Source: Blepharisma stoltei ATCC 30299 (Eukaryota; Protista; Ciliophora). Taken from it: a DNA stretch of 64,000 nucleotides. A program made the position numbers and the translations under genes. The stretch spans positions 630,644 through 694,643 of the forward strand of contig CBFDEM010000015.1 of NCBI GenBank assembly GCA_965603825.1, given 5' to 3'. This document shows, piece by piece, positions 29,757-64,000 of the stretch; within the stretch, counting starts at the first letter, position 1; each line of letters begins with the position of its first letter. Below the pieces are notes generated by a model, which saw nothing but the letters and a program-made list of their open reading frames with translations, had not been told where the DNA came from and searched no databases.

Positions 29757-29904
29757 GATTAAAGTTTATTAAGAAATTTTAGTTTTGACCTTAATTCTTC
29801 ATAAATGATTTTATTTTTCTGTAAAAATTAATTCTGAATACAATTATGAACTAGGCAGAGCTAATTGAAGAAGTTTATGGCGCTGCTAAGTTAAATTAAA
29901 TCAT

Positions 29905-35971: not shown

Positions 35972-36412
35972 ATGGAAAGACTTCAAGCTGAGTTTAACGC
36001 AATTCAATCAGAAAGTCATCCAGAATACTCTGTTGAAATAGTCAATAACAATTTTTTCCACTGGAAAGGCACTCTTCAAGGACCTCAAGACACTCCTTAC
36101 CAAAATGGAAAATTTAGGTTCGAAATTGTTTTCCCTCAAAGTTACCCCGCATCACCTCCTGAATTTTTTTTCAAAACAAAGATTTTTCATCCCAATATAT
36201 ACGAAGTCAACGGAGAAACTTGTGTGAGGGTTCTAAATATTTCTTATAATAGAAATATCCCAGTTAGAATTATTATTGCTTATGTATTTGATCTGCTGGC
36301 GAATCCTAATCCTGATGCAGGGTATGTCCAAGACTCAACTCATGCTTATTTGTATAATAGGCCAGGATATACATCTATGGCTGCTGAGTGGACAAGATTA
36401 TATGCAATATAA
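35972..36412 (+). CDS. Divergent E2 (UBC-fold) conjugating enzyme
   Basis: WKGTLQGPQDTPYQNG, YPASPP, FHPNI...GETC (active Cys), LLANPN. Confidence 0.93.
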   Translation: MERLQAEFNAIQSESHPEYSVEIVNNNFFHWKGTLQGPQDTPYQNGKFRFEIVFPQSYPASPPEFFFKTKIFHPNIYEVNGETCVRVLNISYNRNIPVRIIIAYVFDLLANPNPDAGYVQDSTHAYLYNRPGYTSMAAEWTRLYAI

Positions 36413-38098: not shown

Positions 38099-39595
38099 CT
38101 AATTTCTTTTATAAAATAGCATATAAGCGTTATCAAAGTCAGGGTCTTCATATGATACTGATATATCATTATATTTTTCTCATTCTCCTTCTGTATTTAT
38201 TGTATATGCAATATAATGGCCATAAGTGCTCACTCCATAATAGCAAATTATGCCATACAAGCAATAACTTACATTATTGAGCTCTATTTCCCTAAATTCC
38301 TTAAATTCCCTCCTTATGCTCATCAAGCTGCTAGTTCTTTTTGGCATATAAAATGCTAAATTTAAGTGGCATTTTATCTCCAAAACATTTAATGTCGTAT
38401 CTGCTAATCTCTCACAGTTTTGGCAGTAAAGCTGATTTTGATTGATATATTTCTTAGGCAACCTTTTATCATCAAAGTATTTTTTAATGTTTAAATAATG
38501 CGGAGGAACAGTCATAAACAGCTCTGTTTCGCAATTATAGCTCTTATGAAGATGAGTGTTATGGCATTCGAACATTTGATCAATATAGACTTCAAAAAAA
38601 TGATTTTGAGGGTTTAATTCATTACAAAATGAAATAATTTGGACGAATAGCTCCTTTGCATCATTTTGCCCGTATCCTAAAAACTGCATATAAATTACCA
38701 TAGGAAAATTCTGCCCAAGATCAGTTTTAAAAGTTTCTGCATTTCTCTCAACGCTATTGGCTGAACGGTATTTTATTGAATTTAATAATTTGTTGAGAGA
38801 TATTTCTAGAGAGGTTTGCAGTGAAAGATTTTCTGAAAACCCTGGAGTTGAAGCTAAAATTTGTAGAACAGAATTCAAGTAGCAAGTGTTTCCGATATTC
38901 GGGATTCCAATTTTTGAAAAATATCCTAATGGTCTTCTTTTTCTAATTTTTTCTTCTGAAGAATATTCTTCATTAGCTCGTTTTTTTGGTACTTTTTCTT
39001 TGATTTCGCTCTCATACTTAAAACATAAAAACGACACTTGAAGTTCTGGGGGAAATTTTTCAAGTTTACTTATGTTAAGTGAACAATTTAATTGAGATCA
39101 GTTGCCCTTGTCTTTGAAAAAAAGCTTTTTTGAAGGAAATGATATTGCAGACACCAAAGAATATTGATAATTCTGAATAGTGATTTCATTTTTGATGCTT
39201 AGCTGGGATTTTTTAGATGAGATGAATAAGAGATCATATTTTTTATTGATGTCTTTCTTTATTTCTTCCTCTTGCTTATAAGAATCATCAGGGAGGCAAA
39301 CTCATAATTTAGCAATATCTTCAATCTGTCCGCTGCTCGTAAAAAAAATCTTTATAAAATGCTTCAAATAGCTAAATCAATCAAACAATCGCAAGTTAAA
39401 ATATTTAAAAAACATTTTCTTAAAAATTTCATTATCCTGATTTCCCTCATCTAATTCCTTAAATAAATTTTGCAAAGCAATCATCCAATTACAGGTTGAT
39501 GAAATTTTTTGTAAAAATGAGTATTCCTTGTTTAAATTGTGGAAAAAGTAGAGATTAGACTTAAAATTCCAATATTGATCGTTATGTGCTTTCAT
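38099..39595 (-). CDS. USP protease with degenerate USP-like N-terminal domain
   Basis: Single frame with TGA=Trp. GIPNIGNTCYLNSVLQ, QNDAKE, GHYIAY..W(TGA)KKYND, AYMLFY. In-frame intron at 38684-38698. Confidence 0.87.
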
Positions 39596-39679: not shown

Positions 39680-40225
39680 TTAATTTTCGGATTTTATAAA
39701 ACCTCCAACCATTTGCTTCATAACTTTAATGGTAGAGTTATTACCAATTCCTAATGTTTGCAGGTCTATTTCACCATTGCTGGTTAGAGAAAGGTACTTA
39801 TTTCCTTTTATAATTGTCAATTCTTGGTTTCCAAAAATCTGCAAGAATCTTTCATAGAGGTGCTTAAATTGCAGATTTGGAGGAACTTGAATTGTCCTTT
39901 TAGTTCCTTCATTGTCTTCAATGACTATAGAAATTTGCTGAGGAGCTTGCACTGGAGGCTGTTCAGGAGCAGGTGGGTTGGGGTTTTGAGGCCTTTGAAC
40001 ACTAACAACGCGGATAACTGAATTATTGGTGATATTTAGTTGCTGCAGTGTGAGGTTTTGGGAGTTCGGACCGATGTATTTATTTCCATACATGACTGTG
40101 AGTTCGGTTCCACCAAACATAGTCTGCAGATGTCTAAGAAGCTCAGAATATTGCCAATCACTCTTGCCTTGCAGAATTTTTGTTGTTCCGGTAGCATCTT
40201 CGATTCTTAAAGTAAGATTTGACAT
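39680..40225 (-). CDS. Divergent double-domain ubiquitin-like modifier (ISG15/FAT10-type architecture, ends GG-FIKSEN)
   Basis: Two related Ubl domains joined by a Pro/Gln linker with no internal GG; C-terminus TIKVMKQMVGG. Confidence 0.88.
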   Translation of the reverse strand: MSNLTLRIEDATGTTKILQGKSDWQYSELLRHLQTMFGGTELTVMYGNKYIGPNSQNLTLQQLNITNNSVIRVVSVQRPQNPNPPAPEQPPVQAPQQISIVIEDNEGTKRTIQVPPNLQFKHLYERFLQIFGNQELTIIKGNKYLSLTSNGEIDLQTLGIGNNSTIKVMKQMVGGFIKSEN

Positions 40226-40481
40226 ATTTTATAGAAACATGCACAATGGAAAATTAATAAAATTCATAAATTTAAGAGTTTTAAGAAAGCTATTTGCGGA
40301 ATTTCAAAAAAATTAGTAACTTATAAGCGAATTTGGCTAGTTTTACTAATAGCATATTTTAACTACTCAGCTGCTTAAAGTTCAATTGTAATAAACTCGT
40401 TACTGAAATATAGAAACTAAGCCAAATTTCAATTCATAGGAATAAATGTGTTTCTATCTAATCAAAAATTATTATTAAAAA

Positions 40482-41160
40482 TTAGTTTATATTTCTGTAA
40501 GACACCAAATAAAGGAGATTCCAATCAGGACTTCATCAATTGACCACTTAATCGTTAAATTCCTACCATAAGCCTTTTTTATCATCTTTAGCAAACGCTA
40601 TAAAATGGTTTCCATAATAGAATATCGCTCCAAATATATTATATCTGAACGCTTCACCACTGCAGCATACTTAATGACTCAGACAAATTTTTAGTAATCC
40701 CTCCAAATTTTTATAGCAATATTGAAGAATACCTTCGAAGCTACAAAACCCAGCAATATTCAGAAGCAATGATTTATTAAAATGTAACTTATGCGGCTCA
40801 AATTCGATTTCCATGATGAATGAGTCCTTATAAACAAGCCAACTTACTTGATATTGTCATTTCAAGGCATAGATGCTATAGTCAGACTTCCTAAAAGTTT
40901 GGATTTTGAAGAAATCGGTGCTCTCTGTTTGAGTTGTGTCTTATACAGTTCATGGGTCTTCTGGGCATTATACAACATACACAAAAGAAAATTACTCATC
41001 AATACATTATAATGATAAGCATATGCAAATATTGATTTTCAGAATGGAATTCCTAGGGTTTATTTAGTTTTTTATTTGCTGAATTCTTTGGTTTCTTACT
41101 AAAAGCACTGCTGCATATGTATATTTAAGCGAGCATTGTCCAAATATTGGAGCTTTATTA
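40482..41160 (-). pseudogene. USP pseudogene
   Basis: YNIFGAIFYYGNHFIAFAKDDKKGLW*EFND*..LYLVSY with in-frame TAG/TAA. The 5' part is eroded and its boundary is approximate. Confidence 0.7.
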
Positions 41161-41194
41161 ATTATTAATAGTAAATCTTGTTTCCTAAATGTTT

Positions 41195-41647
41195 TTATCC
41201 AAATGCATCTCTAAATGTTCTTTCTCTTGCTATATTGAATCATTCTTCTCTGCTTATTAAGCAAATATCAGCTGCCTCACACATAAATCCATGCTCTGGC
41301 TCAGGCCTGTTCAGTAATTCGATGAGATAGTCAATGATAACCCTGGGATGGCAGTTTGGGTTTCACATATGGTTAAGCAGAGAATGACAAACTCTTCCAT
41401 TGCTAGGGAAAATATTTGGATGGAATATGGGTGTCTGAAAATATACTTTGGGAGGCTTGCTTGGGTATTTTTTGGAAAATTTTATTAAAAATTCAAAAAG
41501 ACCGCCTTCAAAAGCAGTGCCTTCAGGCCCATTGAGATTTCCGAGTCATTCATAGTAGTCTCCCTGGTGAGTATTCACAGAAACAAAAGGCTGAGGATTT
41601 GCTTGCAAATCATTCAGTTCAGTCATAAGTCGTTGCAACGCTGCCAT
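41195..41647 (-). CDS. Divergent E2 conjugating enzyme (150 aa)
   Basis: MAALQRLMTEL..W(TGA)LGNLNGPEGTAFEGG..YPSKPP..FHPNIFPSNGRVC..W(TGA)NP. Missed by the ORF track. Confidence 0.92.
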
Positions 41648-42213: not shown

Positions 42214-42693
42214 TTATCCCATAGCGTGTCTATACGTATGCTCTCTTGCCTTCGCTATAAATTCATCTTTACTTCTTTTAAGGACAGTGGTTGGGTCATG
42301 GGCATACCCACCAGCTGCATTTGGGTCATTTAATAAAGCAATTATATAGCTTATAATGGTCTTTGGAGTAAATCTACTATTCCACCCACCGCCCACGCCA
42401 CCACGAAAAATCGGCAAGCAAACATTTCCATTTCCATTTCCACTGTCTGAATAAACATTTGGATGAAAAATAGGAGTAATAAATTTGCACGTAGGAGGGT
42501 TAGTTGGATAATCAGCAGGGAAATTTAGCTGAAATTCGAAAAGTCCTCCTTCATATGGAGTTCCAGGCGGGCCATTGAGAGTTCCCTTCCAAAGTCTGAA
42601 ATTGTTTCCATCAATATCAGCTGTCGCATAAGGTAAAGGATCAGATCTCATCTCATTCAAGTCTCTCATAAGTCTTTCGGTTGCGCTGTCCAT
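42214..42693 (-). CDS. Divergent E2 conjugating enzyme with Gly-rich insertions around the active Cys
   Basis: GPPGTPYEGG, YPTNPP, FHPNVYSDSGNGNGNVCLPIFRGGVGGGWN. Confidence 0.93.
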   Translation of the reverse strand: MDSATERLMRDLNEMRSDPLPYATADIDGNNFRLWKGTLNGPPGTPYEGGLFEFQLNFPADYPTNPPTCKFITPIFHPNVYSDSGNGNGNVCLPIFRGGVGGGWNSRFTPKTIISYIIALLNDPNAAGGYAHDPTTVLKRSKDEFIAKAREHTYRHAMG

Positions 42694-43292: not shown

Positions 43293-43856
43293 ATGCAGGG
43301 CAACGACAACTCAATGGTAACTATAACTTTAATCGACATCGATGGTCGGCCAGCAGAAAAAGAGATAAATCTTAATTGAACCTTCTCTTTATTGGCAAGA
43401 CCTCTATTAAACGAATATGAAGCAGATAATCAAAGTCTCGCTCTGAATAATGGAACACTTTTAAGGTTGGTAGATCATCAAAGCGAAAAACTTCGTGACT
43501 TAGGATTTGAGGGCGAAAAAGTAGTAAAAATAATGCATGCAAAAAAAGGCTGTCCAGATATATCAGTTCGCGTTGAAAATTTGATAAACTCATCAAAATT
43601 TAGTGTTATGGTAAACCCTTTATCAAAATGTTTTGATGTCTGCCAAATGCTTGAAACCAGGACTGGATTACGTCTATTAAATAATAGAGAAGCTTCTGTT
43701 ATGGTGAAATCCGTTTATTTGAATTTTGAAAACAATTATTATAAAACGCTGAGAGATTTAAAAATAAAGCACAATGAAAGTTTGAATATCTTGAAATTTG
43801 AGCGTGGAGGTCTTTATTGTGCAAAACGAATCAATTATTATAAAGCACCAAATTAA
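43293..43856 (+). CDS. Divergent double-domain ubiquitin-like modifier (ends GG-LYCAKRINYYKAPN)
   Basis: ATG at 43293 in frame via TGA. VTITLIDIDG..LRDLGF and ISVRVEN..KTLRDLKIKHNESLNILKFERGG. Confidence 0.78.
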
Positions 43857-43999: not shown

Positions 44000-44622
44000 T
44001 TTTTGACCCAAGCATACAGTCTATTTTTCTTATTCCAAGCTTATTACGAATGCCTCTCTCTAACTTTTAAAAAGTATCAGTCTTTTTGGTATCAAAAACA
44101 CGAACTTCTTCATTAAATCAAACATAATTCTTATTTCATCCTTAAGCACTCTCAGAGTAGCCGAACTAGTAAATCTAAAGCTTTTAAAGAAAAATTTCCT
44201 TGTGTTGCCAAATCTAGTCTCTTTTTGTAATCTCTGATAGTTTCTTCTTTCTAAATTCGATGTCTTGGTTAATTTTAAATTTAGTTTTCATTAAATTAGT
44301 GAACTCAGAAAGCTTCATATTGCTACTTCTTATTTCAAGAAATTTCTTCTATCTCCATATACTACAGAGATATGCAAATCAGGGATAATTTTGACCTCTA
44401 AGCAGCTGCTGTTCATGATTTTAAATCAAAGAGAGATTTTTCGCCATCAAGGTTGAAATTGAGGTAGGTTGCATTTTTGAGATTAGTGAGGATTTTGAGA
44501 TCATTAGTCAGGGAAAGGGCAGCTTGTATATTGTAATAGAGCTCAAAAAATATCATACTGGCTGAGGCTTTAACTACAAAGTTTTCTCCTCCAATTACAT
44601 GAATTCTAATCCTTATGGACAT
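44000..44622 (-). pseudogene. Frameshifted, truncated copy of the tri-Ubl gene 34770-35504
   Basis: High nucleotide similarity with several indels; ends before the GG-encoding 3' end. Confidence 0.88.
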
Positions 44623-45560
44623 TTTATCGCTAAATCTATAAATTTTTATTAAATATGAAATTTTGCTTTTTATATATTTTATTATAAAAATTTTAGACCT
44701 AATAAGGAGATCTGTTAATTAGAATTTTATAGCAGCTTGCAAAGATCACAAACTGGAAGAGAATGTAGTAATTTATATCTAATTTCTTGTTAAATTTTGC
44801 TATCTCAAGAGATGTAATGAATTTTTATATATATTATATCCTGAATGAGGGATTTTTATTTGCTATCTTGATTATTTCTTCTACTTTAAGTGGAAATATT
44901 TATCTTTTCGCATAACCTGTAGAGTGCAGAGAACAATTTGTCTTGAATAAATAAATATAGAGAATTTGCCAAATTACTCTTGCAGGTTTAAATTTCAAAT
45001 AATATAATTAGCATACGATATAGCTCGCTATCAACTGCTAATTCAAGTTTTGGTAAATGATTGAGTTTATAGTGGCTTAGCTATAATTTATAATCTAAGC
45101 TCTTCAGCATTATCATTTATGGCTAAAAATATCTTCAAAATATCATATTTTTAACCTGAATAAATTTCTTTATTAGAGAAATAAAATATTTCATATTTTC
45201 GACTTAATTTTTTAAACTACTGCAAGTATATGATGCATCAGATTTAAATACTTATTTCATAAAACAAGAATAATTTCTTCATGATTATTATTTAATTACA
45301 AAATTCAAATAAAAAGCTAGATTAGAAAATGCCTAAAATTTATAAATTGCTTAAAGCAGCAATGAATATAAATTTTTTCTTTATAGAAATTACCTTTCAT
45401 ATCCATATAATCTTATATGTATTTTATCACTTTATATAAATATTTTGGAAATAAAAGATAGATCTTCAATGAAATTTTGGGTTCTCATTGTAAGCTTATT
45501 AAGAAAATATAATAAAATCTCAAAATTAGATATTTTAATAATTTAATAACATCTGTAGAA

Positions 45561-45975
45561 ATGGAAAGACTTCAAGCTGAGCTTAACGCAATTCAATTGG
45601 AAAGTCATTCAGAATACTCTTTGAAATAGTTAATAACAATTTTTTCCACTGGAAAGGCACTCTTCAAGGGCCTCAAGACACTCCTTACCAAAATGGAAAA
45701 TTTAGGTTCGAAATTGTTTTCCTCAAAATTACCCTGCATCACCTCCTGATTTTTTTCAAAACAAAGATTTTTCATCCCAATATATACGAAGTCAACGGAG
45801 AAACTTGTGTGAGGGTTCTAAATATTTCTTATAATAGAAATATCCCAGCTAGAATTATTATTGCTTATGTATTTGATCTGCTGGCCAATCCTAATTCTGA
45901 TGCAGGGTATGTCCAAGATTCAACTCATGCTTATTTGTATAATAGGCCAGGATATACATCTATGGCTACTGAGTG
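45561..45975 (+). pseudogene. Frameshifted copy of E2 35972-36412
   Basis: Near-identical DNA with small deletions (about 45620, 45720, 45750) and a truncated 3' end. Confidence 0.88.
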
Positions 45976-46239: not shown

Positions 46240-48132
46240 TTAATTTTTATTTTTATAGAAAAGCATATAAGCGCATCTAAAATTCGGCTTATCAGCAAAA
46301 GAAACCATCGAATCGTTATACTCAACTCATGAATTTTCAGCCTCACAATAAGTATAAGCAAAATAGTGCCCAGACAAATTGGTCCCAATATGACAGATAA
46401 CTCCATAAAGTCTATAATTGTTGTTTTCAATTGTTATATTGTCTTCTGGAATAAAAGAGGTTGGTGCCGGAGTCAAATAGAAAACTAAATTAGCTCGGGT
46501 CTCAATAGAAGTTGTCTCAATTGTCATATCTCTCAAGCAGTCACATTTGTCACAATAAAGAGCATTCGCACCTTGAAATCTCTCTGGATTCTTTAATCCA
46601 TCTATATAGCTTTGGATACTCCTTATCCTATTTGTAGGTACCACAAAAAACGAGGAGCTTTCTTCTGGAGAGCCTGCATCATGCCCTCTACAAATAAACC
46701 TTTTAACTCTTTTTATCAAAAACAAGTCGAAATTAGGCTTTTCGTCAGCGACTTTTGAGATGATAATTTGGAAAAGCTCTTTAGAGTCATTTTGGGTGCA
46801 TCCTTGGAACTAAATAAAGGCTACCATTGAGAATTCTGAGCTTAATTCATTTTTGAATTGGGAAATAGCAGAGGCTAAATTGCCTGATTTTGATTTCATT
46901 AGCTTAAAGATATTAGAAAGATATGTGAAAAAAGGTTGATTTATCCAGGCTACTATACCTTCAAAACCTTCAGTGCTAACTAGAATTTGCAATACAGAAT
47001 TCATATAGCAAGTATTTCCAATATTAGGTAGGCCGCTATTGCAGTTCGCCAGAGATTTAGGTTTTGGGGTACACACGATGCCATATGCGTAAGAATTATC
47101 AGTTCTTTTGATATCATATGCCGCATTATAGGGGTGAACTATGTTTTTTCTATCATCTTCAAAGCGATTTCTTCGACTTCTCTCATTTCCGATTTCGCTA
47201 ATATTGCTCCCAATCGACTTTTGGACAATACTCTCCGTCTTATTCTCTTTTGAAGCTTGGAAATTTTGTAAACTTCAAGCAGGCACAGGATTTGCTTGAG
47301 AGTTCTGATATTTGTCTTCTCGGTAATGCAGGTCCTTATTTCTTCCCCAATTATCTTGAACTGGGCTAGGACTTTTGTAAATACTATAGATAGCATCATA
47401 CTGAGAATTCTGAGGATTCTTTACATGATCGAAGTTTTGATTTTCGCTCTTTGGTACTCTATTAAGATTACGGCTTTGTCTCTCATCTTGATCTTGGGTT
47501 TTATTTCCAAATGTATAACTTACGTCATAATGTCTTTTATCTGTATAATGAACATTTAAATTAGTATCTTTTAGCGCTACATCTCGGGTGACCCTTGAAT
47601 TGATCTTAATATTTTGGTTTGTAATTTTTAATTTTTCTTCGTTCTGGTTTGGCTTTTGTTGAGGTGCTTGAATAGTCTTTGAAGATCCAGAACTTTGTTT
47701 TGGTTCTTGTGGCTTTGATGGCGTGCTTACAACTTTGCTAATTCCACTTCGACTTTCAGGCTTGCTTACGCCAGCATTGCTAGAATTTCTTGAGTTTGCA
47801 TTAGATGACAATTTATTGCTATAGATGATACTTCTTGCTTTATCTTCATTTCCTTTTTTCCCTGAACTTTGACTTAGTTCTTGCGGTTTTGGTGGCGTGC
47901 TTAAAACTCTGTTATTTCCACTTCGACTTTCAGGCTTGCCTAAACCAGTATTGCTTGAATTTCTTAAGTTTGCATTAGTTGACAATTTGTTGCTATATGA
48001 GATACTTCTTGCTTCACCTTCATTTATTTTTTTCTCTGTTATAGATTGGGTTTTTGGATTAATTGGTCTTCTTGGAATATCAGCATTCAAATAATTATGA
48101 TTGCCTTTGACCGGACCTGGAAATTTTCTCAT
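46240..48132 (-). CDS. USP protease with long disordered N-terminus containing a 58-aa duplication
   Basis: Single frame via TGA. GLPNIGNTCYMNSVLQ, QNDSKE, GHYFAY..W(TGA)VEYND, AYMLFY. Intron at 46810-46824. Confidence 0.87.
47705..48025 (-). repeat. 174-bp-period internal coding duplication (2 copies)
   Basis: ARSI.YSNKLS.NAN.RNSSN.G..KPESRSG...V.STP.KPQE occurs twice. Confidence 0.9.
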
Positions 48133-48993: not shown

Positions 48994-49932
48994 ATGATGA
49001 TATTAAATTTTCTTAGGAAGATTTTTGGCTACTTTTTCGATTCTCCAAGGCCTATAATAAGTATACAAAATTTACCAACTCTAAGTATTGTTCCTGAAAA
49101 AAAGCTAGTATTTCCTATTTGAGCATCCCAGCCAGATGGCATAAAATCTCATAAACAGGGACTCCCTAATGTTGGGAATACCTGTTATTTAAATGCTCTT
49201 CTACAAGTATTATCAAGCACTCCAGATTTTGTTCAAAAATTACCTTCAAATTCAAAAATATGTGTTTCACTGTCAAGAGTTATATCATGAGTCCAACAGA
49301 AAGGCAGACTTTCAATTTTCGCTGAAATAAAAAAGCTTCAGCTATATTTATTTCAAGAATTCCGCATGGTAATAAATACGTAGTTTAACGAGCACTCAGA
49401 AAATGACCCAAAAGAGCTTTACTTATCATTAATGGGCCTTTTGCCAGATTCAAGCGATTTCTCTATAATTTTATATAAGAAAATTCTATGCAAACTATGC
49501 CACAATTTTTCAAATTTAGAAGAGCCATCTCTCTTTTGCATTCTAAAAAATCCATCAAAAAAAGAAATTGAAGAGAAATTAAAAAATCTCGAAGAAGAAA
49601 AAGAGTATAAAGGGGGAAATTTATTGTATTGTGAAAATTGCTCGGCAAACAGGGAAATGGTAATGAGCACCTTTGGCATAAATATACCAAACATTTTTGT
49701 ATTTTATATTGGGAATGTGTTGGGCAAAAGAGCTCAAGGAGCTTATAATTTCTTTTATTGTGGTGATAAATTTGAGCTATATGGGGTAATATGCTATTAT
49801 AATAGTGGGTGTAGGCATTATATTGCATATACATTAGATAATGCAGAGTGAATGCAATATAATGATGACCATATTAGCTACTCATCACCTGATTTTGAGC
49901 ATGCTTATATGTTATTTTACAAAAAGACATAG
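48994..49932 (+). CDS. USP protease
   Basis: GLPNVGNTCYLNALLQ, ENDPKE, CENC, RHYIAY..W(TGA)MQYNDD, AYMLFY. Intron at 49369-49383. Start inferred. Confidence 0.85.
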
Positions 49933-50007
49933 CAAGCTAAATATACCTATTTATTATTTTAAAATAAAGTGATAATTGTAGAATGTATAAAAATATCCTT
50001 AATAAAA

Positions 50008-50370
50008 TGATTCATATAGCGCAAGAATTTAATAAGCTCAAACGAACTACATAAAGGAATCGAGTTAATATAGGACAAGTTTTTCCATTGGAATGGACTG
50101 CTGATAGGCCTTAGAAACTCCTTTGAAGTTGGCAAATTTCGATTCAAGCTAATTTTCTATTCCAATTCTCCAACTTCTCTTCCGAATTTTTCTTCAAAAC
50201 AAGAACTTTCCACCCAAATGTGGACTCTGACGGGAAAGCATGCACACAAGTTCTCAAATTCACTTTGAGGCCAAATATATCAATAAGCAGCATCTTGAAT
50301 TCTATATGCGTTTTGCTAAGAGAGCCCTAACCTGATGCAGGGTATTTTAACGACGCAAGCCTTAGAAAGC
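50008..50370 (+). pseudogene. E2 pseudogene (closest to E2 54628-55065)
   Basis: FHWNGLLIG.., TFHPNVDSDGKAC, P*PDAGYFND with stops and frameshifts. Confidence 0.8.
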
Positions 50371-50399
50371 AATGATAGGTTTACAAATTTCGTGAGGAG

Positions 50400-51108
50400 C
50401 ATAGACAGCCACTCTTTTGCAGTGGCTTTATATGGAGTTTATAATATTATGAGAGAAAAAGAGATATCGAGCAGAATTTAAGGATTTTTAAAGATCAAGC
50501 TAACCAAAAATTTTCATTCGTAAGCTCTATGCAGCTTGATACATTTGGCCACCAAGATTCAAAAGAGTTTTTAGTGTGCCTTTTATCAACATTAGAAGAG
50601 CTTTCTAGCGTAAGTTTGTCAAATATCACTCCAATTCAAGAGTCTATATGCATGAGTTGTATAAAGTCCCTACCATAATCAAGAAAATCAAAGCTTTTTT
50701 ACGATTCCAAATAACCAAAAATCAAATCAGATGCATTTAAGAGACTTCAATGCAAGGTATAGAATTTTAGAGGAGATAATATACTCCATTGTCAATTTTG
50801 TGAATCTCTGAGGAATATAAGTATTAAAACTAAGAGAATTTTATTCTGAAATGCTAATTTTTTATCTGCCAGCTTATAAAAATTTTCCTAATGCCAAAAT
50901 TGAGGGAAAACTGAAGTTAGAAGAGTATGAATTCAGTCTCTATGGTTTTATATGAAGCTATGGCTCTGGAAATATTGGGCATTATACAACTCATATTAAA
51001 GATGGGAATGTTTGGAGATTATATAATGACTCAACTGTAAGTGATAAAAGCTATGATGCAGGAAATAGCTATTTAGTTTTTTATTTATTAAATAAGTCGA
51101 GGACTTAA
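50400..51108 (+). pseudogene. USP pseudogene lacking the Cys box
   Basis: Family intron GTAAGCTCTATGCAG at 50520-50534, HQDSKE, SLYGFI..GHYTTH..WRLYNDS..YLVFY. Frameshifts present and no upstream GNTCY. Confidence 0.75.
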
Positions 51109-51302: not shown

Positions 51303-51743
51303 ATGCAACGACTTATGGACGAGTTTATCAATCTGCAAGACAGACCAGAACCTTATATCACTATAAACATAATAAATCACTCATTTTACAACTGAAAAGG
51401 AACACTTAATGGCCCTGATGGAACCCCATACGAAGGTGGCCTATTCGAGTTCGAAATTACATTTCCACCAAATTTCCCAACAAGTCCTCCTGAATTTCTT
51501 TTTAAGACGCCAATTTTTCATCCAAACATTAGATCTGATGGGCACGTTTGTTGTGAAATCTTTTCAAATGCCTGAAACCCAAAAGTCCCTGTTAGAAACA
51601 TCATTTCGTATGCAGTAGGATTATTAAATGAGCCTGAACCAAGAGCAGGATACCAAGGACCTGCCACAGAATTATGCTTGAAGAATCGAGAAGATTTTAA
51701 TAGGGAAGCAAGAAGATGGACTTTTGAGCATGCAATGGGGTAA
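51303..51743 (+). CDS. Divergent E2 conjugating enzyme (146 aa)
   Basis: MQRLMDEF..W(TGA)KGTLNGPDGTPYEGG..FPTSPP..FHPNIRSDGHVC..W(TGA)NP..EARRWT. Missed by the ORF track. Confidence 0.93.
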
Positions 51744-52660: not shown

Positions 52661-54583
52661 ATGTCTGACGCACGAGTTTGAAAATTTTGCATCGCAGTCA
52701 ATCTCACTTATTCCCTTAAACAATTTATCAATTTCGAAACCAATCTGTTGCTGTCTGAAACCTTAAATCAGGTACTAAATTCCTTACAATGAGATGAACA
52801 AAATCAAAGGGAGCTAGCCTTTTTACGAGATGAGCTAGACCAAGTTTTAATAGATAATAGCTGAACTATTTCATGCATTGAAAAAGATCTTATTGATTTA
52901 CCATTACAACAAAAGATCTTCTGTGCTGCTGATAAAATAATGATTTTAAAAGATCTTCCATCGAGAATTTGCTCAATTAAAATAAAAGAAAATGAAAATA
53001 GCTATTTTCTTGTCGCAGCGCTTTTAGAAAATGGCAAAGCACTTTATCATTGGAAAGATGAAGATTGATACAAAATTGGGTTTGATAAGTCCATGCCTGA
53101 TGAACCGCATTATTTTTACTTTTGCGAGGCTCCTCTACATGATATAGAGCGGATTTTAAACTCTAAATGCTATGAAAAAATATATTCGCTGCTTAGAGAC
53201 TCGCATACCGAAAATGAGTCTCTACTAGATATTAGTGAAGCATCTGAAATAAACCAAAGAGCTAGCATAGATGAAAGTAAAGAAAGCAATGAAATTATTG
53301 AAAAAGGGGTAAAAGATACAAAAAATCAAGAATTACAAACTGAAATTGACAATGAGCAAGTCTGCAAACTTAAGCTATCAATTAAAAATTTACAGCAAAA
53401 TGTAAAAAAACTCGAAGGTTCAAATCAGAAATCGCAAAACCTAATAAATTCTTTGAAACATGAAATTCATGAGCTTAAGGAGCAAAGAAAAGCCTCAGAA
53501 GATATAAAAAATAAATATGAATCGGAAATCGCTAACCTTGAAAAAGAAAAGAAAGAAATGCATGACACCATTCAGCTCCTTCATAATCAAGGACAACAAA
53601 TGAGCGCGGGCCATAATTTCCAACTAGTCCAATTGGAAAAATTAAATCACGATTTAGTTTATGAGAATGAATCATTAAGAGAAGAATGCAGAAAACTTAA
53701 AGAAAGTCAAATAATTGAGCTACCTCCCAATCGTAAGCACGGCCTTCCTAATTTAGGAAACACCTGCTATTTGAATTCTCTTTTACAAATATTTTCGAGT
53801 ACTCCTGCCTTTGAGGCTGCACTTCAAAGTTTAACCCAGCCATTTTCAAAATCTCTTAAAGACCTTTTGCTCAATATGAAAAAGGACAACAGCCCTCGGA
53901 CTATTGGAGGCTTGACAAAGTTATTTTTATCAAATCTGGTGCAAAATTATCCGTTTGTAAAAGTTATTTAGCTTGTAGCTTACACTCAGCAAGATCCTAA
54001 AGAAGTTTTGAATATGATTTTAAGCAAATTAGGAGAAGAACAAAGGAATTTTGATATTTTTTCAATTGTTTTTGAGCAAAACCTAATATGCAGTAAAAAG
54101 CACAAATCAGCTTATTCAGATGTCAGCTCATTTTTAGTAATTCCTCCACAATATAAAGAATACCCAGAGAATTTTATCCTCAGCAAAATTAATAATCCTT
54201 CAAAGATTAAATCATTTTGCAGTCCATGCAAAAAAGAAGCTGATATTAGCATTTCTGCGACTCTACCCGTCTACCCACAACATCTTATCTTTTATTTTCC
54301 AGCTTCTCCTCAGGCTCTAAAACCTTATATTCATTTTAATAAAAACAATTGATATGAATTATATGGAGCTATTTGCTATTATCAAGAAGAAAGCTTTCAT
54401 TATACTGCATTAACTAAAGATGGAGTTGATTGAAATGAGTATAATGATGAGCACGTTGAAGCTAAAAGCATAAACCCATCCCTAGTATTTTTAGCATTTT
54501 ATTCTAAAGCACCTCCATCAATTCCTGGTACAAAGGCTGCTCCCATCCCTACATCTGTTAAAAAAAAGGAGAAATGATTCTAG
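52661..54583 (+). CDS. USP protease: degenerate USP-like N-terminal domain, coiled coil, active USP
   Basis: ATG at 52661 in frame via TGAs. GLPNLGNTCYLNSLLQ, QQDPKE, FHYTAL..W(TGA)NEYNDE. Intron at 53957-53971. Confidence 0.85.
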
Positions 54584-54627: not shown

Positions 54628-55065
54628 TTAAACTGCATACATATGCGTCCACATCCTAGCTATTCTTTCATATTCCTCTTTATCAGCGCTTCTGACTGCA
54701 GTTGCATCATTAAGGTATCCATCCTCAGTGCTAGGTTCACTCATCAGCACACAAATGCTATCAAGGATCGATTTTACTGTTGTTGTGCTTTGCCACTTGT
54801 AATTAAGCAGCATTGTGCAAGCTTTGCCGTTCGAGTCCACGTTTGGATGGAAAATAATCGTTTTGAAGTAAAACTCTGGAGGACTTTGAGGGAAATCTTG
54901 AGGGAAAAGAATCTCAAATTGGAATCTTCCGCCTTCAAAAGGAGTTTCTGGTGGGCCTATTAGTACCCCACCTCAGTGATAGAAATCATTGTTGATTAAA
55001 TAAACTAATAAACCGTCAGTTGGATCTTCACAAAATTTTGCGAAATCGGCCTGGAGCTTTTGCAT
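54628..55065 (-). CDS. Divergent E2 conjugating enzyme (145 aa)
   Basis: MQKLQADF..W(TGA)GGVLIGPPETPFEGG..FPQSPP..FHPNVDSNGKAC. Divergently paired with the E1 across about 320 bp. Confidence 0.93.
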
Positions 55066-55387
55066 ATATGTAGAATTATAAATAATAATTTTTTGCATTA
55101 GGGCCATAAAGAAATTAAAAAGTTTAAAATAAATGAATTAGGAAATGCATCTTGTGTTTTTATTGCTTCATTCTTATATGATAGAGTCTTCATGTCTTTC
55201 GCTAACTATTTTTCTATTTATCCAGAAATTGCTAAATTAGTCTTAAGTCCCTTAATATTTCTGGACTCAGGAATTTTGCCTAAGCTGATTTTCCCATAAA
55301 CCCATCCTTACTTTACCTCGTTGCTCATATTTTCATCTTTATTCACACTTTTAACTGAGAACTAAGGATTCTACATTTTTGTTAATA

Positions 55388-58300
55388 ATGTCAAGTCAAG
55401 ATCATCTCTATTCGCGCTCAATCGCTGCTATTGGTATGACGACTCAAAAAAAGCTTTTCACCATCCGAGTCTTGATTTCTGGTCTCCGAGGAGTCGGTCT
55501 AGAAATCGCTAAAAACTTGATCTTAGCTGGTCTCAATACAGTAACTTTGCATGATGATTCTATAATTTCGCTTTATGACTTAGGGACCAACTTTTACATA
55601 AGCGAGTCTCATATAAACCAAAACCGAGCTGAATCAGTTGTCTCCAAACTCCAAGAACTCAACCCAAACGTCTCAGTAAACATCCATAAAGGAGAAATTA
55701 CCCAAGAAGTTATTTCTCAACACTCATTGGTGCTTCTTACAGAAAGTGATGGCGCCACGCTCAGAAGGGTGAATTCCATTTGCAGAGAGCTAAGTCCTCA
55801 AGTAGGTTTTGTGTCTGTTGAAGCCTGAGGAGTAGCTGGGCACATTTTTGTGGATTTTGGGGACAATTTCGAAGTTTCTGATAGAAATGGGACAGACCTG
55901 AAGAGTTATTTGATTACCAATATAAGCAAAAGCAATCCTGGAGTAGTAATGATAGATGAGAAGCAAAGGCAAATGCTTCAGAATGGAGAATATGTAAGGT
56001 TCAAAGAAGTGGAAGGAATGACTCCTCTTAATGATGGCAGAGAACGAATGGTGACTTATATAGACCAGCACAGCTTTTCAATAGATGAAGATACCACAGA
56101 ATACCCAGATTATGTAAAATATGGAATCGTTGAAGAGGTCAGAAAACCTTTCCATTATGATTTTCGGCCTTATGAAGTTTCTATTAAAAATCCTGAAGAA
56201 TTAAAGCCTTTCATACAGTCTGATTACTCAAAAGAAAACAGGCCTCCTCATCTACATTTAGCTATGCTTGCTATCAGAAAATTCCAAGAAGTTCATGGAT
56301 TTCTCCCTGAAGTCCACAATGAAGACCACGCAAATCTCTGTGTGATTTATGCAAGGGAAATCAGAGAGGTTTCTTCACAAGAGTTTGGCATAGATGCAAT
56401 TGATGAATCCATCATCAAAAACGTCGCGAAGTATGCAAGACTGCAAATTCCTCCAGTTACTTCAATATTTGGAGGAATTGCGGCTCAAGAAGTCATAAAA
56501 TTCACTGGAAAATTTACTCCAATCCAGCAGTGGTTTCATATAGACTGGTTTGAGCTAATCCAGCCAACTGCAAGCATTGTTGACTCAAGGTATCATGATC
56601 TCCAAGCCATTATTGGAGAAGAAGGAGTCAATAAGCTTAAATCAGTCAATTTATTTATGGTCGGGTCTGGGGCTTTGGGATGTGAATTGCTAAAGCTTTT
56701 TGCATTGTCTGGAATTTGCTGTGGGTCTGGAGAACTTACTGTCACTGACGACGATAACATAGAAGTCTCCAATCTGACGAGACAGTTTTTATTCAACATG
56801 ACTAATGTGGGACAATCCAAAAGTGAATGCGCCACAAGGATAGCGAAAATTATGAACCCAGAAATTAACGTCACTGCTTTGAAAAACAGAGTTTGCCCAG
56901 AAACAGAAAACTTGTTTAACGATAGGTTTTGGGGGAAATTAAATGCAGTTTTTGGGGCTGTGGATAATGTACATGCACGAGTTTATGTAGATTCTAAATG
57001 TGTTTGGTATAAAAAGCCACTCTTTGAAAGCGGAACAGAAGGGACAAAAGCGAATTCTCAAGTAATCATTCCGTTTTTAACTCAAACATATTCAGATATT
57101 CCACAAATGTCTGAAGAGAAAATCCCTGAGTGTACTTTAAAGTCTTTTCCATATGCAATTTCTCACTGTATTGAGTGGTCTCGAGAAAAATTGTCAGATT
57201 ACTTTACTTCTGGCCCTGGAGAGCTAAATAAGTACTTGGAAAACCCTGAGGCTTATATGCAAAAACTACGAAGCATGAGGAACGCTGCAATGCAAGTTAC
57301 CCAGCTAAAGCAGCTAAAAGAATATTTAGAGCTTTCTAAAATAAGCAGCTTTGACGATTGTATTGCTGTCGCAAGACAAAAACTTAATGAGCTATTTAAT
57401 GAAGAAATTAGATCATTATTACATCAATTTCCCCCTGATGCAAAATGGTCAGAAGGTGGCGATTTTTGGTCAGGAACCAGGAGATTACCTGAGCCTTGCA
57501 TTTTTGACACAGAAAAAGAAGATCATATAGGATTTATAGAAGCTTATGCAAATTTGGTAGCCTTTAACCTTAACATTCCACAGAATAGAGACAGGAATTA
57601 CATAAAAGAAGTGGTGTCTAAGGTCCAAGTTAGGGAGTTTGTCCCAAGAAAAGTCTATATACAATTAGAAAATAGCGAGGATCAGCAGCCGCAACCAACA
57701 GGAGAAACTGACATAAAATTAAGAGAAGAATTGCTGAGCTGGACTGAAGGATTTTCATTAGAAAATGCCAAGCCTATGACACCAATTGCATTTGAAAAAG
57801 ATGATGATACTAATTTCCACATTGATTTTATCCACACTGCTTCAAATTTGAGGGCAAATAATTACAAAATTTCAACTATAGAAAGGCACAAAACCAAGGT
57901 TATTGCTGGAAAAATCATCCCAGCTCTTGCAACTACAACTGCAGTTATTGCGGGAATCGGGGTAGCTGAATTTATTAAATATACTCTTGAGTTAGAATTA
58001 GAAAAAATGAGGGATAGCTTTATGAACTTGGCGAGTCCGTTTATCCTTTTCCCAGAACCTCGGCCTGCAATAGTGATTAAATCTGTTGAATATGATGAAA
58101 TTTTAGCTGCTCCCAAGAGGGCATATAATGACGGCTTTACCAAATGGGACGATATTGTCATTGATGGGCCTTGCACAATGGGAGAGCTAGTTGACACTTT
58201 GAAAGAAAAATACAAGGTTTCCCCATTGCAGATTGCCTGTGGAAAGTTCTGCTTGTTTAATCAATATTCAAGAGATAATAAAGATGAGCTACTTAAAAGA

Positions 58301-58441
58301 GAAGTTTATGAGCTATACAAAGAAATTAGTGGAGACAAAACAGAGGGTAAAACGTCGGTTGGTCTCATATTATTTGCAGTCTCAGTTGAAGATAAAGCTC
58401 AAATGATGCTTCCACCTTTGAAGTATATTTTCAGTCATTAA
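55388..58441 (+). CDS. Monomeric E1 activating enzyme (UBA1/UBA6/UBA7-type architecture), divergent
   Basis: LYSRSI, GLRGVGLEIAKNLILAG, VGSGALGCE, SNLTRQFLF, DNVHAR, ESGTEG, catalytic IPECTLKSFP, FEKDDDTNFHIDF, AGKIIPALATTTA and a C-terminal UFD. One TGA=Trp at 55826; 1017 aa. Confidence 0.95.
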
Positions 58442-58574: not shown

Positions 58575-60605
58575 ATGAAAATTCCTGAGGATCAGAAATA
58601 CTGAGATTTATGCGCATCTATTTGCTTAATTAATACTATATCAGAATATCTTCATAATGATGAAGATCAAATTAGCAGTTTAATGCAAATAGAGCAAGCT
58701 CTAAAAGATTCTCAAAAATTTAACTTGAAAGAAGAATCAATAAAACAGCTGTGAGATCATACTGAAACGAAAAAAGATAGCATTTGAAGCTGGCTCAACA
58801 TTATTTTGGATGGTTGTTATCTATGAAATTTGCTTTTTTATCGAGAAGAAAATACAACTTATATTTCTTCATTAAATTATTGAAAGTTAGCCTGAGGGGA
58901 ATATATGAAAAATAAGTCTGCTTACTTAGCTTGTATCAGCAGTACAGATAAGCCTAAAGTCTTATTAGAAAATAGCTATGGTAAATTCTTGCTGGTGTTA
59001 GCATTTTCTAATTCTGAAAAAATTATGTATTATTTTAAGAAAAATTCATGATTTGCGTTAGGGAATAGAGAAGAAAGCATGGTAACTTTTCTCCCTGATA
59101 TGTATTTATTGTACATAAGAACGGAAGATTGTCAATTTCACGAAGATATTAATTACGCTGAACAATTTTTGATTTTGAATAGCATGGATAACCTATCAAT
59201 TTTTTCAAAATTGGAACATTCATATTATTCTGAGCGATATGAGAAATCAAGAGACATAGAGACATTGACTAACGAAAATGATATTCTTAAAAAATCGCTC
59301 AATAAAGAAGCACATAAATATTCGGAGAGACTTGAGAATCAAGAAAGAGATATAGAAAGATTGACTGCTGAGAATGAAACTCTTAACAAATCAGTAAATG
59401 AAGCTTCAGGTGCAATGTCAAAACAAAAATCTGAAATTGAAAAACTTAAAAATGAAATTTCTAATTTAAAACAGCTATTAAATAATAAAGAAAGAGAAGC
59501 AGAAAATCTAGAAAAAGCTAATAAAGCATTGGAATCTGAGCTCAACAAGCAAAAGCAAAGCAATAACTCGCTCCAAAGTGAATATGATAAGTTAATGCAG
59601 TATAATAATAATTTATCTTCGAAAAACAAAGAGCAAGTGCAATCCGAGCTTGAAAAGTTTTATAGCAAGATAAATCAAGCCTGTGATGAACTTAATCAAG
59701 GCATAATCTCAACAATTCATTGTCCAGAAGCTGAACTAGTTCGTAAAGATCACACCCTCAAACAGTATGACCTTTCAGCAAGTTCTCATTTGAAAGAATC
59801 AAAAACTTCTATATTTCCTAATATTAAACAGGGAATTCCCAATCTCGGAAACACTTGCTATTTGAACTCAGTTTTGCAAATCTTCGCAAGCACAAATACG
59901 CTTTTTGAATTTATTGGTACAAAAGAGGATAGCTTGTCAATAGCCTTATATAATGTTCTTTTAGCTATTCGAATGGGAAGCTTTGAAGCATTAGTAAGAT
60001 CATTAAAATCAGAGATTGACGCAGTCTTTCCGATGTTCTTGCATGGAGAGCAACAGGATGCAAAAGAACTACTCGTAACACTATTTGATCATACTTTAGA
60101 TGCAAGAGCAAAATCATTATTCTCTTTTTGCTACCATGAGAAGCTGCCTTGCGATAACTGCGGAAAAGTATCACTTCTAATAAGGGAGGAAAATTTACTT
60201 CTTATTCCAAGCCATGAAACAAGTATTACATCTTTTCTTAATAAAATAACAGAACCAAAAAGCATTCAAGGTCAAGGACTGAAATGTGAATCATGCAATC
60301 AATTTTCAATTTTTAAAACAGAAATCACTAGTATTGAGTCTCCACATTACTTAATTTTCTACTTGTCTAGGTCAGAAAATGGAAACCCAAGGCCTTATAA
60401 TTTTTTAGAAGAGACTTTAACATTAAATAGCCAAACTTACTGCTTGTATGGAGTTATTTGCTATTATAAGAATGGAAATGGAGGGCACTATACAGCATTT
60501 ACAAGGGATGGAGACCAATGGAACAATTATAATGACAATATTGTTGGAATTAAAACCTTTGACCAAAATGATGCTTATTTAGCTTTTTATTCAGTAATAT
60601 CTTAA
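58575..60605 (+). CDS. USP protease: degenerate USP-like N-terminal domain, coiled coil, active USP (intronless)
   Basis: ATG at 58575 in frame through several TGA. GIPNLGNTCYLNSVLQ, FPMFLHGEQQDAKE, GGHYTAF..WNNYND, AYLAFY. Confidence 0.88.
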
Positions 60606-61385: not shown

Positions 61386-64000
61386 TTAGGGTGTTAGGGT
61401 GTTAGGTGAGGTGTTAGGGTGTTAGGGTGTTAGGGTGTGTAGGGTGTTAGGGTGTTAGGGTGTTAGGGTGTTAGGGTGTTAGGGTGTTAGGGTTGTTAGG
61501 GTGTTAGGTGGTGTTAGGGTGTTAGGGTGTTAGGGTGTTAGGGTGTTAGGGTGTTAGGTTTAGGGTGTTAGGGTGTTAGGGTGTTAGGGTGTTAGGGTGT
61601 TAGGGTGTTAGGGTTAGGTGTTAGGGTGTTAGGGTGTTAGGGTGTTAGGGTGTTAGGTGTTAGGGTGTTAGGGTGTTAGGGTGTTAGGGTGTTAGGGTGT
61701 TTAGGGTGTTAGGGTGTTAGGGTGTTAGGGTGTTAGGGTGTTAGGGTGTTAGGTGTTAGGGTGTTAGGGTTAGGGTGTTAGGGTGTTAGGGTGTTAGGGT
61801 GTTTAGGGTGTTAGGGTGTAGGGTGTTAGGGTGTTAGGGTGTTAGGGTGTTAGGGTGTTAGGGTGTTAGGTTGTTAGGTGTAGGGTGTTAGGGTGTTAGG
61901 GTGTTAGGGTGTTAGGGTGTTAGGGTGTTAGGGGGTGTTAGGGTGTTAGGTGTTAGGGTGTTAGGGTGTTAGGGTGTTAGGGTGTTAGGGTGTTAGGTGT
62001 TAGGGTGTTAGGGTGTTAGGGTGTTAGGGTGTTAGGGTGTTAGGGTGTTTAGGGTGTTAGGGTGTTAGGGAGGTGTTAGGGTTTAGGGTGTTAGGGTGTT
62101 AGGGTGTTAGGGTGTTAGGGTGTTAGGGTGTTAGGGTGTTAGGGTGTTAGGGTGTTAGGGTGTTAGGGTGTTAGGGTGTTAGGGTGTTAGGGTGTTAGGG
62201 TGTTAGGTTAGGTGTTAGGGTGTTAGGGTGTTAGGGTGTTAGGGTGTTAGGTGTGTTAGGGTGTTAGGGTGTTAGGGTGTTAGGTGTTAGGGTGTAGGGT
62301 GTTAGGTGTTAGGTGTTAGGGTGTTAGGGTGTTAGGGTGTTAGGGTGTTAGGGTGTTAGGGTGTAGGGTGTTAGGGTGTTAGGGTGTTAGGGTGTTAGGG
62401 TGTTAGGGTGTGTTAGGGTGTTAGGGTGTTTGGTGTTAGGGTGTTAGGTGTTAGGGTGTTAGGTGTTAGGGTGTTAGGGTGTTAGGGTGTTAGGGTGTTA
62501 GGGTGTTAGGGTGTTAGGGTGTTAGGGTGTTAGGTAGGTGTTAGGGTGTTAGGGTGTTAGGGTGTTAGGGTGTTAGGGTGTTAGGGTGTTAGGGTGTGGT
62601 TTAGGGTGTTAGGGTGTTAGGGTTAGGGTGTTAGGGTGTTAGGGTGTTAGGGTGTTAGGGTGTTAGGTGTTAGGTGTAGGGTGTTAGGGTTGTTAGGGTG
62701 TTAGGGTGTTAGGGGTGTTAGGGTGTTAGGGTGTTAGGGTGTTAGGGTGTTAGGGTGTTAGGGTGTTAGGGTGTTTAGGGTGTTAGGGTGTTAGGGTGTT
62801 AGGGTGTTAGGTGTAGGTTAGGGTGTTAGGGTGTTAGGGTGTTAGGGTGTTAGGGTGTTAGGGTGTTAGGGTGTTGGTTAGGGTGTTAGGGTGTTAGGGT
62901 GTTAGGGTGTTAGGGTGTTAGGTGTTAGGGTGTTAGGGTGTTAGGGTGTTGTTAGGGTGTTAGGGGTGGTGTTAGGGTGTTAGGGGTTGTTAGGGTGTTA
63001 GGGTGTTAGGGTGTTAGGGTGTTAGGGTGTTAGGGTGTTAGGGTGTTAGGGTGTAGGGTGTTAGGGTGTTAGGGTGTGGTTAGGGTGTTAGGTGTTAGGT
63101 GTTAGGGTGTTAGGGTGTTTGGGTGTTAGGGTGTTAGGTGTTAGGGTGTTAGGGTGTGTTAGGGTGTTAGGGTGTTAGGGTGTTAGGGTGTTAGGGTGTT
63201 AGGGTGTTAGGGTGTTAGGGTGTTAGGGTGTTAGGGTGTTAGGGTGTTAGGGTGTTAGGGTGTTAGGGTGTTAGGGTGTTAGGGTGTTAGGGTGTTAGGG
63301 TGTTAGGGTGTTAGGGTTAGGTGTTAGGGTGTTAGGGTGTTAGGGTGTTAGGGTGTTAGGGTGATAGGGTGTTAGGGTTTAGGGTGTTAGGGTGTTAGGG
63401 TGTTAGGGTGTTAGGGTTGTTAGGGTGTTAGGGTGTTAGGGTGTTAGGGTGTTAGGGTGTTAGGGTAGTTAGGGTGTTAGGTGTTAGGGTGTTAGGGTGT
63501 TAGGTTGTTAGGGTAGGTTAGGGTGTTAGGGTGTTAGGGTGGGTGTTAGGGTGTTAGGGTTAGGGTGTTAGGGTGTTAGGGTGTTAGGGGTTTAGGGTGT
63601 TAGGGTGTTAGGGGTGTTAGGGTGTAGGGTGTTAGGGTGTTAGGTGTTAGGGTGTTAGGGTGTTAGGGTGTTAGGGTGTTAGGGTGTAGGTGTTAGGGTG
63701 TTAGGGTGTTAGGGTGTAGGGTAGTGGTAGGTGTTAGGGTGTTAGGGTGTTAGTTTAGGGTGTTAGGGTGTTAGGGTGTTAGGGTGTTAGGGTGATTAGG
63801 TGTTAGGGTGTTAGGGTGTTAGGTGTTTAGGGTGTTAGGGTGTATAGGGTGTTAGGGTGTTAGGTGTTAGGGTGTTAGGGTGTTAGGGTGTTAGAGGGTG
63901 TTAGGGTGTTAGGTGTTAGGTTAGGTTAGGGTGTTAGGGTGTTAGGTGTTAGGTGTTAGGGTGTTAGGGTGTTAGGGTGTTAGGGGTGTTAGGGTGTTAG
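61386..64000 (+). repeat. Telomeric repeat array (TTAGGGTG)n = (CCCTAACA)n, heterotrich ciliate type
   Basis: An 8-nt unit repeated to the window end, G-rich strand 5'->3' towards the end, with scattered indel variants. Confidence 0.97.

Follow-up and report, generated by a model that had tools for sequence, protein, structure and literature searches.

Does the ubiquitin-activating enzyme (E1) encoded near one end of a Blepharisma stoltei contig still serve ubiquitin, or has it been adapted to the ubiquitin-like proteins (Ubls) encoded around it? The stretch analysed here, called the window throughout, comprises 64,000 nucleotides of strain ATCC 30299 (contig CBFDEM010000015.1, positions 630,644 to 694,643). 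We consider it probable (about 0.62) that the window E1 arose by duplication of the ciliate's UBA1 and has evolved fast, staying catalytically intact while its Arg72/Arg42 pocket was rebuilt; it likely activates the neighbouring Ubls, which lack Arg72, in preference to ubiquitin and acts as the entry point of a private cascade.

The Arg72/Arg42 pocket of the window E1

55388..58441, + strand: UBA1-derived E1, 1017 amino acids, full domain set, catalytic Cys582 (codon 57131-57133), one TGA read as Trp
57032..57136, + strand: remodelled Arg72/Arg42 pocket and crossover loop, from gapless alignment to human UBA1

Pfam recovered the single-chain IAD-FCCH-4HB-AAD-SCCH-UFD layout in the window E1. 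A first-pass annotation, made from the sequence alone, had quoted an altered crossover loop in this protein, and positions 57032-57136 do encode it under translation table 4, together with two extra residues in front. Its claim that the canonical Asp aligns to Gln was borne out by the gapless alignment, in which Asp623 of human UBA1 corresponds to Gln573 (codon 57104-57106). Ser621 is replaced by Ile571, Leu601 by Glu551 and the Pro-Pro of the loop by Met-Ser, and the equivalents of Leu931 and Glu214 are changed as well. Gln608, Tyr618, Glu626 and Cys632 are retained as Gln558, Tyr568, Glu576 and Cys582. The acidic Arg72 pocket of UBA1 (Gln608, Tyr618, Ser621, Asp623) is left incomplete, with Ser and Asp replaced and Gln and Tyr kept. 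The annotation had further described SSSxDPP as having become SDIPQMS; the loop is altered, but its Asp (Asp570) is ancestral in alveolate UBA1 (118/120) and lies outside the change.

Gln576 and Asp591 of yeast Uba1 contact Arg72, for which the ubiquitin-activating enzyme (UAE) is strictly selective (PMC3731359). In the human enzyme, Q608, S621 and D623 are engaged by ubiquitin Arg42 and Arg72, and altering these five residues gave an orthogonal pair, with ~1,500-fold less cross-activity in the yeast version (PMC5290280). The loss of the Asp from the window E1 would remove the positive selection for Arg72.

Among the best 120 of 1179 matches, the Asp is present at the Asp623 column in 116. The exceptions are the window E1 (Gln), the B. 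stoltei proteins P0002 (Trp) and P0003 (Gln), and the ENA protein P0094 (Asn). The altered loop is not shared by canonical ciliate UBA1: the B. stoltei enzyme (P0004, 47% identical to the window E1) and those of three Stentor keep the Asp, as do those of Tetrahymena, Paramecium, Euplotes and Stylonychia. Our canonical set (n=116) consists of the listed homologues minus the four non-Asp proteins; Asp-column counts inside it are circular, and 116/120 is the fair figure. A column counted as conserved if 90% or more of the remaining 116 proteins shared its residue (n=268). In the window E1, 39 of these 268 columns are changed, including five of the ten that fall in the loop (Fisher p 0.007; the loop was chosen for this test after the finding). 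Within the canonical set, 92 proteins had no loop change and none had more than three. A second hotspot of change at E1 residues 7-25 (window 55415-55460, which is residues 10-25), beside the ATP-binding Arg10, ties with the loop in a sliding scan. All 17 ATP-binding and catalytic residues checked are intact in the window E1 and in its paralogue P0003. Judged from these alignments, the loop observation is real and beyond chance.

The clustered Ubls lack Arg72 and Arg42

23477..23725, - strand: Ubl-1, one domain, position 72 Gln, 1 residue past GG; RNA-like contigs
34770..35504, - strand: Ubl-3, three domains, position 72 Cys, 6 residues past GG; RNA-like contigs, poly(A) end
39680..40225, - strand: Ubl-2, two domains (ISG15/FAT10-like layout), position 72 Gln, 6 residues past GG; RNA-like contigs
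43293..43856, + strand: Ubl-4, two domains, position 72 Phe, 14 residues past GG; the sole contig on it is a diverged one from a single run

Both arginines contacted by canonical UBA1 are missing from all four window Ubls. The residues given for position 72 by the first-pass annotation (Q, Q, C and F) hold in register against ubiquitin, and position 42 is Ser, Thr, Val and Ser. Ile or Met is kept at position 44. The window Ubls are 17-26% identical to a stored ubiquitin unit, and the near-invariant LRLRGG-tailed ubiquitin sequence is not matched. Since the di-Gly is present in all four and always followed by further residues, every one of them would need trimming. Ubl-1 and Ubl-2 model as beta-grasp folds (Foldseek matches to ubiquitin, di-ubiquitin and ISG15, and for Ubl-1 also SUMO); Ubl-3 and Ubl-4 were placed as ubiquitin-like through alignment and profile.

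Arg72 is also missing from five further relatives, four of them named B. stoltei and one an MMETSP transcript. Relatives that share the tail of Ubl-1 are 87-91% identical to it, the MMETSP transcript standing at 87%. Related Ubls on four other B. stoltei contigs have Gln, His, Tyr and His at position 72, and three of these contigs, matched through their lengths, also carry cluster-type ubiquitin-specific proteases (USPs).

Other Ubl proteins were noted as well. P0130 (B. stoltei) has three head-to-tail Ubl-1 units with joints lacking GG and a Gly-Cys end, as expected of a non-cleavable poly-Ubl or decoy. Many multi-domain Ubl proteins (P0158-P0272, one cluster with n=40) end in Ile/Val-Ile/Val-Gly-Ala and may form a further GA-terminus Ubl family. 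P0214, P0249 and P0271 (Logan, ENA and JGI contigs) are single or triple Ubls with GG tails and Asn, Thr and Arg at position 72; the 79-kb contig of P0214 may hold another cassette.

The window E1 derives from ciliate UBA1

The nearest named homologues of the window E1 are from B. stoltei, a heterotrich ciliate whose E1 and Ubl inventory was drawn from protein searches. The E1 nests in the heterotrich UBA1 clade with a support of 98-100 (quick and FastTree trees), on a long branch whose exact place is unsure. This nesting, in trees that left out UBA6 and UBA7, argues against orthology to animal UBA6/UBA7. The best PDB match is UBA1 with 665 bits (UBA6 618, UBA7 493).

The paralogue P0003 is 80% identical and shares Pro-Gln at 572-573 with the window E1. 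P0002 has lost the catalytic Cys and three more catalytic positions. P0094, encoded on a 99-kb contig and sister to the canonical P0017/P0022, is a heterotrich paralogue of UBA1 that was derived separately; it has Asn at the Asp623 column and lacks the catalytic Cys.

The same gene set recurs in a second ciliate lineage

Six E1 motifs that lie away from the loop were used to scan metagenomes and gave seven loci (L001-L007). Five have a rebuilt loop, all with ~21% GC, the standard code and CCCCAAT repeats. CCCCAAT is the telomere reported for rumen ciliates (bioRxiv 2022.01.05.474053), and these five loci probably belong to that lineage. L001 is too short for neighbours. At all four loci long enough to have them (L002-L005), a Ubl, a ubiquitin-conjugating enzyme (E2) and two to four USPs adjoin the remodelled-loop E1. 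Three of these four are telomere-capped at both ends, and L003 is a 7.9-kb chromosome with E2, Ubl, E1, USP, USP and nothing else. L006 and L007 have a canonical loop and no cassette, but at 3.2 and 5.0 kb they are weak controls.

The rumen-type Ubls have Pro, Leu, Lys and Glu at position 72 when counted from GG (Ala, Thr, Ile and Leu by alignment) and never the Arg. Their E1s keep 16-17 of the 17 catalytic residues and have 5-9 of the 10 loop columns changed. Trees group these E1s with three canonical-loop proteins, apart from the window E1, and a single clade of both types was rejected by the approximately unbiased test (p-AU 2.3e-5 with LG+G4 and 20 rows; 1.4e-4 with a mixture model and 12 rows). 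By these trees, the rumen-type E1s arose separately. Twelve conserved sites are altered in both E1 lineages (p 0.003), and five lie at the crossover loop or immediately ahead of it; a shared tolerance to change could inflate this overlap.

Met-Gly starts with a nearby Ser or Cys, which we take to resemble myristoylation or palmitoylation signals, were found in the Ubl P0142 and in two E2s and three USPs (L004:3942-4433, L004:4517-5488, L005:3760-4353, L005:4419-5450, L005:8892-10064). Together with the hydrophobic N-termini of the window USPs at 31675 and 33265, they suggest that the cascade may be active at membranes.

E2s, USPs and transcription of the cluster

35972..36412, + strand: E2, UBE2D-like, HPN and Cys intact
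41195..41647, - strand: E2, HPN and Cys intact
42214..42693, - strand: E2, HPN and Cys intact
51303..51743, + strand: E2, HPN and Cys intact
54628..55107, - strand: E2, HPN and Cys intact, head-to-head with the E1; sole window E2 with the Asp117 equivalent
24554..27347, + strand: USP gene with a degenerate first USP domain, coiled coil and intact second domain; two tiny introns inferred
28161..29765, - strand: USP-fold protein without catalytic Cys and His, Cys/His-rich N-terminus
30388..31233, + strand: USP, triad intact, 15-nt intron at 30652 absent from RNA-like contigs
31675..32721, + strand: USP, triad intact, hydrophobic N-terminus
33265..34341, + strand: USP, triad intact, hydrophobic N-terminus, 15-nt intron at 33763
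36541..37962, + strand: USP, triad intact, 15-nt intron at 37378
38099..39595, - strand: USP, triad intact
46240..48132, - strand: USP, triad intact, 15-nt intron near 46810
48994..49932, + strand: USP, triad intact, tiny intron inferred near 49380
52661..54583, + strand: USP with coiled coil, triad intact, 15-nt intron at 53957
58575..60605, + strand: USP with coiled coil, triad intact, last gene ahead of the telomere

The cluster holds one E1, five E2s, four Ubls, ten USPs with the Cys, His, Asp catalytic triad, one inactive USP and several decayed copies. No E3 was found among the cluster's open reading frames (ORFs) with RING, HECT and B-box patterns and Pfam, which a diverged or intron-split E3 could escape.

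The cassette E2s of the window and of the rumen-type loci are all nearest to UBE2D. The Asp-Pro-Leu motif has been replaced in them; position 119 is Tyr or Phe in 9/9 cassette E2s versus 0/32 viral E2s, and Asp117 is missing from four of the five window E2s and all four rumen-type E2s. This loss hints at unusual acceptors or a transthiolating partner. A single clade of both E2 sets had a p-AU of 0.43 against a background of viral E2s only. The cassette may accordingly be an ancient one in which the E1 was exchanged, or it may be wholly convergent.

The N-terminal parts of the USPs at 36541, 38099, 52661, 58575 and 24554 resemble, by eye, degenerate second USP domains placed before the active one.

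Transcription was followed through contigs from four runs of one study, whose RNA status was guessed (none is recorded as RNA) and in which uncovered stretches are uninformative. RNA-like contigs span the coding regions of the E1, of Ubl-1, -2 and -3, and of several E2s and USPs. Five 15-nt GT..AG introns are missing from them, and they show poly(A) ends downstream of the E1 (at 58469) and of Ubl-3. The E1, Ubl-2, Ubl-4 and one E2 have four contig records each, and genes further in have two; the terminal block is probably duplicated on a second contig.

A proposed cascade and its alternatives

From the observed pocket changes, intact catalytic residues, Arg losses, clustering, transcription and recurrence, we infer each of the following enzymatic steps. 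Cluster USPs would trim the 1-14 residues after GG. The window E1 would then adenylate the Ubl and bind it as a thioester at Cys582, its neutral Ile571/Gln573 pocket accepting the position-72 Gln, Cys or Phe that canonical UBA1 disfavours. The Ubl would be handed to the cluster E2s. These E2s, mostly without the Asp117 equivalent needed for lysine transfer, would pass it on without a clustered E3, either through a transthiolating E3 encoded elsewhere or to non-lysine acceptors, and the many USPs would reverse the tagging.

That the window E1 is co-adapted with the clustered Ubls is well supported by the comparisons above, because two of the three Arg42/Arg72-binding residues are changed, both arginines are missing from 4/4 Ubls, the catalytic residues are intact, and the pairing recurs at 4/4 rumen-type loci with a separately derived E1. 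The first-pass annotation had gone further and proposed that the E1 co-evolved to activate these Ubls rather than ubiquitin. Co-adaptation stood, whereas a strict exclusion of ubiquitin would go beyond the sequence evidence. The ubiquitin-facing Gln558, Tyr568, Asp570, Glu576, Phe878, Asn880 and Arg194 are all retained and no blocking Arg like Arg190 of Uba3 was gained, so ubiquitin may still be charged. Other observations also count against a dedicated E1. The residue at position 72 varies among the window Ubls, without one-to-one complementarity to the E1, and the L004 Ubl has Lys there when counted from GG. Loop indels in the rumen-type E1s make the Asp623 column not firmly assignable, and the loop enrichment of L005 is not significant (p 0.088). 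The window E1 is accelerated as a whole (39/268 conserved columns; stem 1.09 changes per column), and the related divergent P0002 and P0094, having lost the catalytic Cys, show that decay is real in this E1 family. The expression evidence comes from a single study and from contigs of guessed RNA status.

The retained Gln558, Tyr568 and Glu576 and most of the hydrophobic interface would also suit a UBA6-like, dual-specific E1, whose relaxed pocket charges ubiquitin as well as the cluster Ubls and feeds either to the cluster E2s. The pocket of UBA6 takes both Arg72 and FAT10 Tyr161 (PMC12355090), and a permissive pocket would fit the variety of residues at position 72. We regard dual specificity as rather unlikely, since UBA6 keeps its Asp (D616, PMC5290280) whereas in the window E1 the Asp and the equivalents of Ser621 and Leu931 are all gone, and mutations of the polar UBA6 pocket impaired the activation of ubiquitin but not of FAT10 (PMC12355090). 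It is far less probable that E1, E2s, Ubls and USPs are subtelomeric duplicates drifting under relaxed selection, with matching losses by coincidence. Pseudogenes and dead paralogues do occur in and around the cluster, its GC is lower and a retrotransposon sits at its border; yet relaxed selection sits poorly with 17/17 intact catalytic residues beside a hotspot in the loop, the close conservation of Ubl-1 among its same-tail relatives, one of them from a transcriptome, the spliced RNA-like contigs and a gene set that fills whole telomere-capped chromosomes of another ciliate lineage. We give just as little credit to an activation of the Ubls by a NEDD8 or SUMO E1, or to their being unconjugated, with the window E1 changed for another substrate. 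The NEDD8-activating enzyme (NAE) does tolerate a hydrophobic or uncharged polar residue at position 72, Gln included (PMC3731359), position 72 of SUMO is Gln/Glu (PMC12355090), and a paralogue of Ubl-1 is labelled Rad60/SUMO-like. The fold search with Ubl-1 does not discriminate, matching SUMO chains almost as well as ubiquitin, but the Ubl profile drew 46 PDB sequences (E<=0.01), none of them named SUMO or NEDD8, and the repeated E1-Ubl-E2-USP linkage would be left unexplained.

The subtelomeric position, the duplication and the decay, along with the analogy to ISG15 and Bil, suggest conflict or defence; this is our leading guess and the weakest step of the argument. A broader proposal, which we put forward tentatively and hold to be doubtful as a whole, is that ciliates repeatedly built operon-like, orthogonal E1-E2-Ubl-USP cassettes without E3 from their own UBA1 copy with a neutralised Arg72 gate, serving ISG15/Bil-like immune tagging of invaders or prey on non-lysine acceptors, beyond the reach of ubiquitin-directed pathogen effectors.

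Relation to known ubiquitin-like systems

The window E1 shares with UBA1 the domain set, ATP site, catalytic Cys and clade, and differs from it at the Ser621, Asp623, Leu601, Leu931 and Glu214 equivalents, by its long branch and by its clustering with non-Arg72 Ubls. To our knowledge, few dedicated Ubl pathways derive from UBA1, namely UBA6 and UBA7. UBA7-UBE2L6-ISG15-USP18 and UBA6-FAT10 likewise combine a UBA1-type E1 and a multi-domain Ubl with an E2 and a USP of their own, and the two beta-grasp domains of the Ubl-2 model match di-ubiquitin and ISG15. In animals the genes of both pathways are dispersed. Whereas ISG15 keeps LRLRGG and UBA6 keeps the Asp, the ciliate cluster has a rebuilt Arg72 gate, several Ubls per E1 and clustered genes. 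The extracts of the UBA6/FAT10 literature and of PMC1949818 hold nothing on ciliates.

Bil, the ISG15-like anti-phage system, is a bacterial operon with a JAB-type deubiquitinase (DUB). It too is a compact set of Ubl, E1, E2 and DUB, and its abstract names no E3. Archaeal ubiquitin operons are similarly compact, with a pro-ubiquitin trimmed by a linked protease (PMC5654768), and include a RING gene, whereas none was found in the ciliate cluster. The ciliate locus differs from both in being eukaryotic, with a full-length UBA1-type E1, UBE2D-like E2s, USP proteases, separately oriented genes, poly(A) and introns. With its eukaryotic setting and USP (UCH) proteases it does not belong to the Bil-type bacterial operons, and the likeness is one of layout only. 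The nearest systems are the archaeal operons and Bil in layout, and UBA6 and UBA7 in origin.

The engineered xUB-xUba1 pair uses the same interface, ubiquitin Arg42/Arg72 against E1 residues 608, 621 and 623 (PMC5290280). It reverses the charges, whereas the natural ciliate pair neutralises them and keeps Gln608. The ciliate genes would let the Arg72 gating rule, and the escape of an E1 from ubiquitin, be tested in a natural system, which forms the counterpart to orthogonal ubiquitin transfer by engineering. Since the parts all lie next to one another, a few small genes would suffice to rebuild the cascade in vitro.

The literature searched, which missed most subscription papers, holds no account of this E1-E2-Ubl-USP cassette. 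It looks like another UBA1-derived Ubl pathway, one that arose independently at least twice among ciliates, and like a prokaryote-style ubiquitin cassette in a eukaryote. Its recurrence in two ciliate lineages is the larger result. Atlas searches gave only generic clusters, of E2 and ubiquitin-like type. As for a viral source, neither the window E1 nor the L003 E1 had a relative in the viral contigs, and among 48 viral E2 loci a Ubl profile match occurred in none and an E1 profile match in one.

Locus setting

18965..23061, + strand: non-LTR retrotransposon-like ORFs (RVT_1), inner border of the cluster
40300..41200, + strand: USP remnant
44000..45975, no strand assigned: decayed copy of Ubl-3 (83% DNA identity) and of the E2 at 35972 (95%), with frameshifts and stops
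49980..51108, + strand: remnants of another E2 and another USP
61389..64000, + strand: telomere, CCCTAACA-type repeat, at the window end

The cluster is 37 kb long and subtelomeric, and from 23.5 kb to the telomere all recognisable genes belong to the ubiquitin system. The window genes read through TGA as Trp; translation table 4 gives whole genes, and the ciliate code of table 6, which broke the frames, was rejected. The CCCTAACA-type telomere, TGA as Trp and introns of 15-16 nt are traits reported for B. stoltei (bioRxiv 2021.12.14.471607).

The retrotransposon-like element at 18965-23061 is present in macronuclear DNA, and RNA-like contigs of a near-identical copy have an extra base at 22546 relative to the window. 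Short repeats (70-91% identity) link distant parts of the cluster: 32164-32319 with 42786-42941, 33126-33283 with 42940-43097, and 29940-30182 with 60993-61210, the last next to the telomere.

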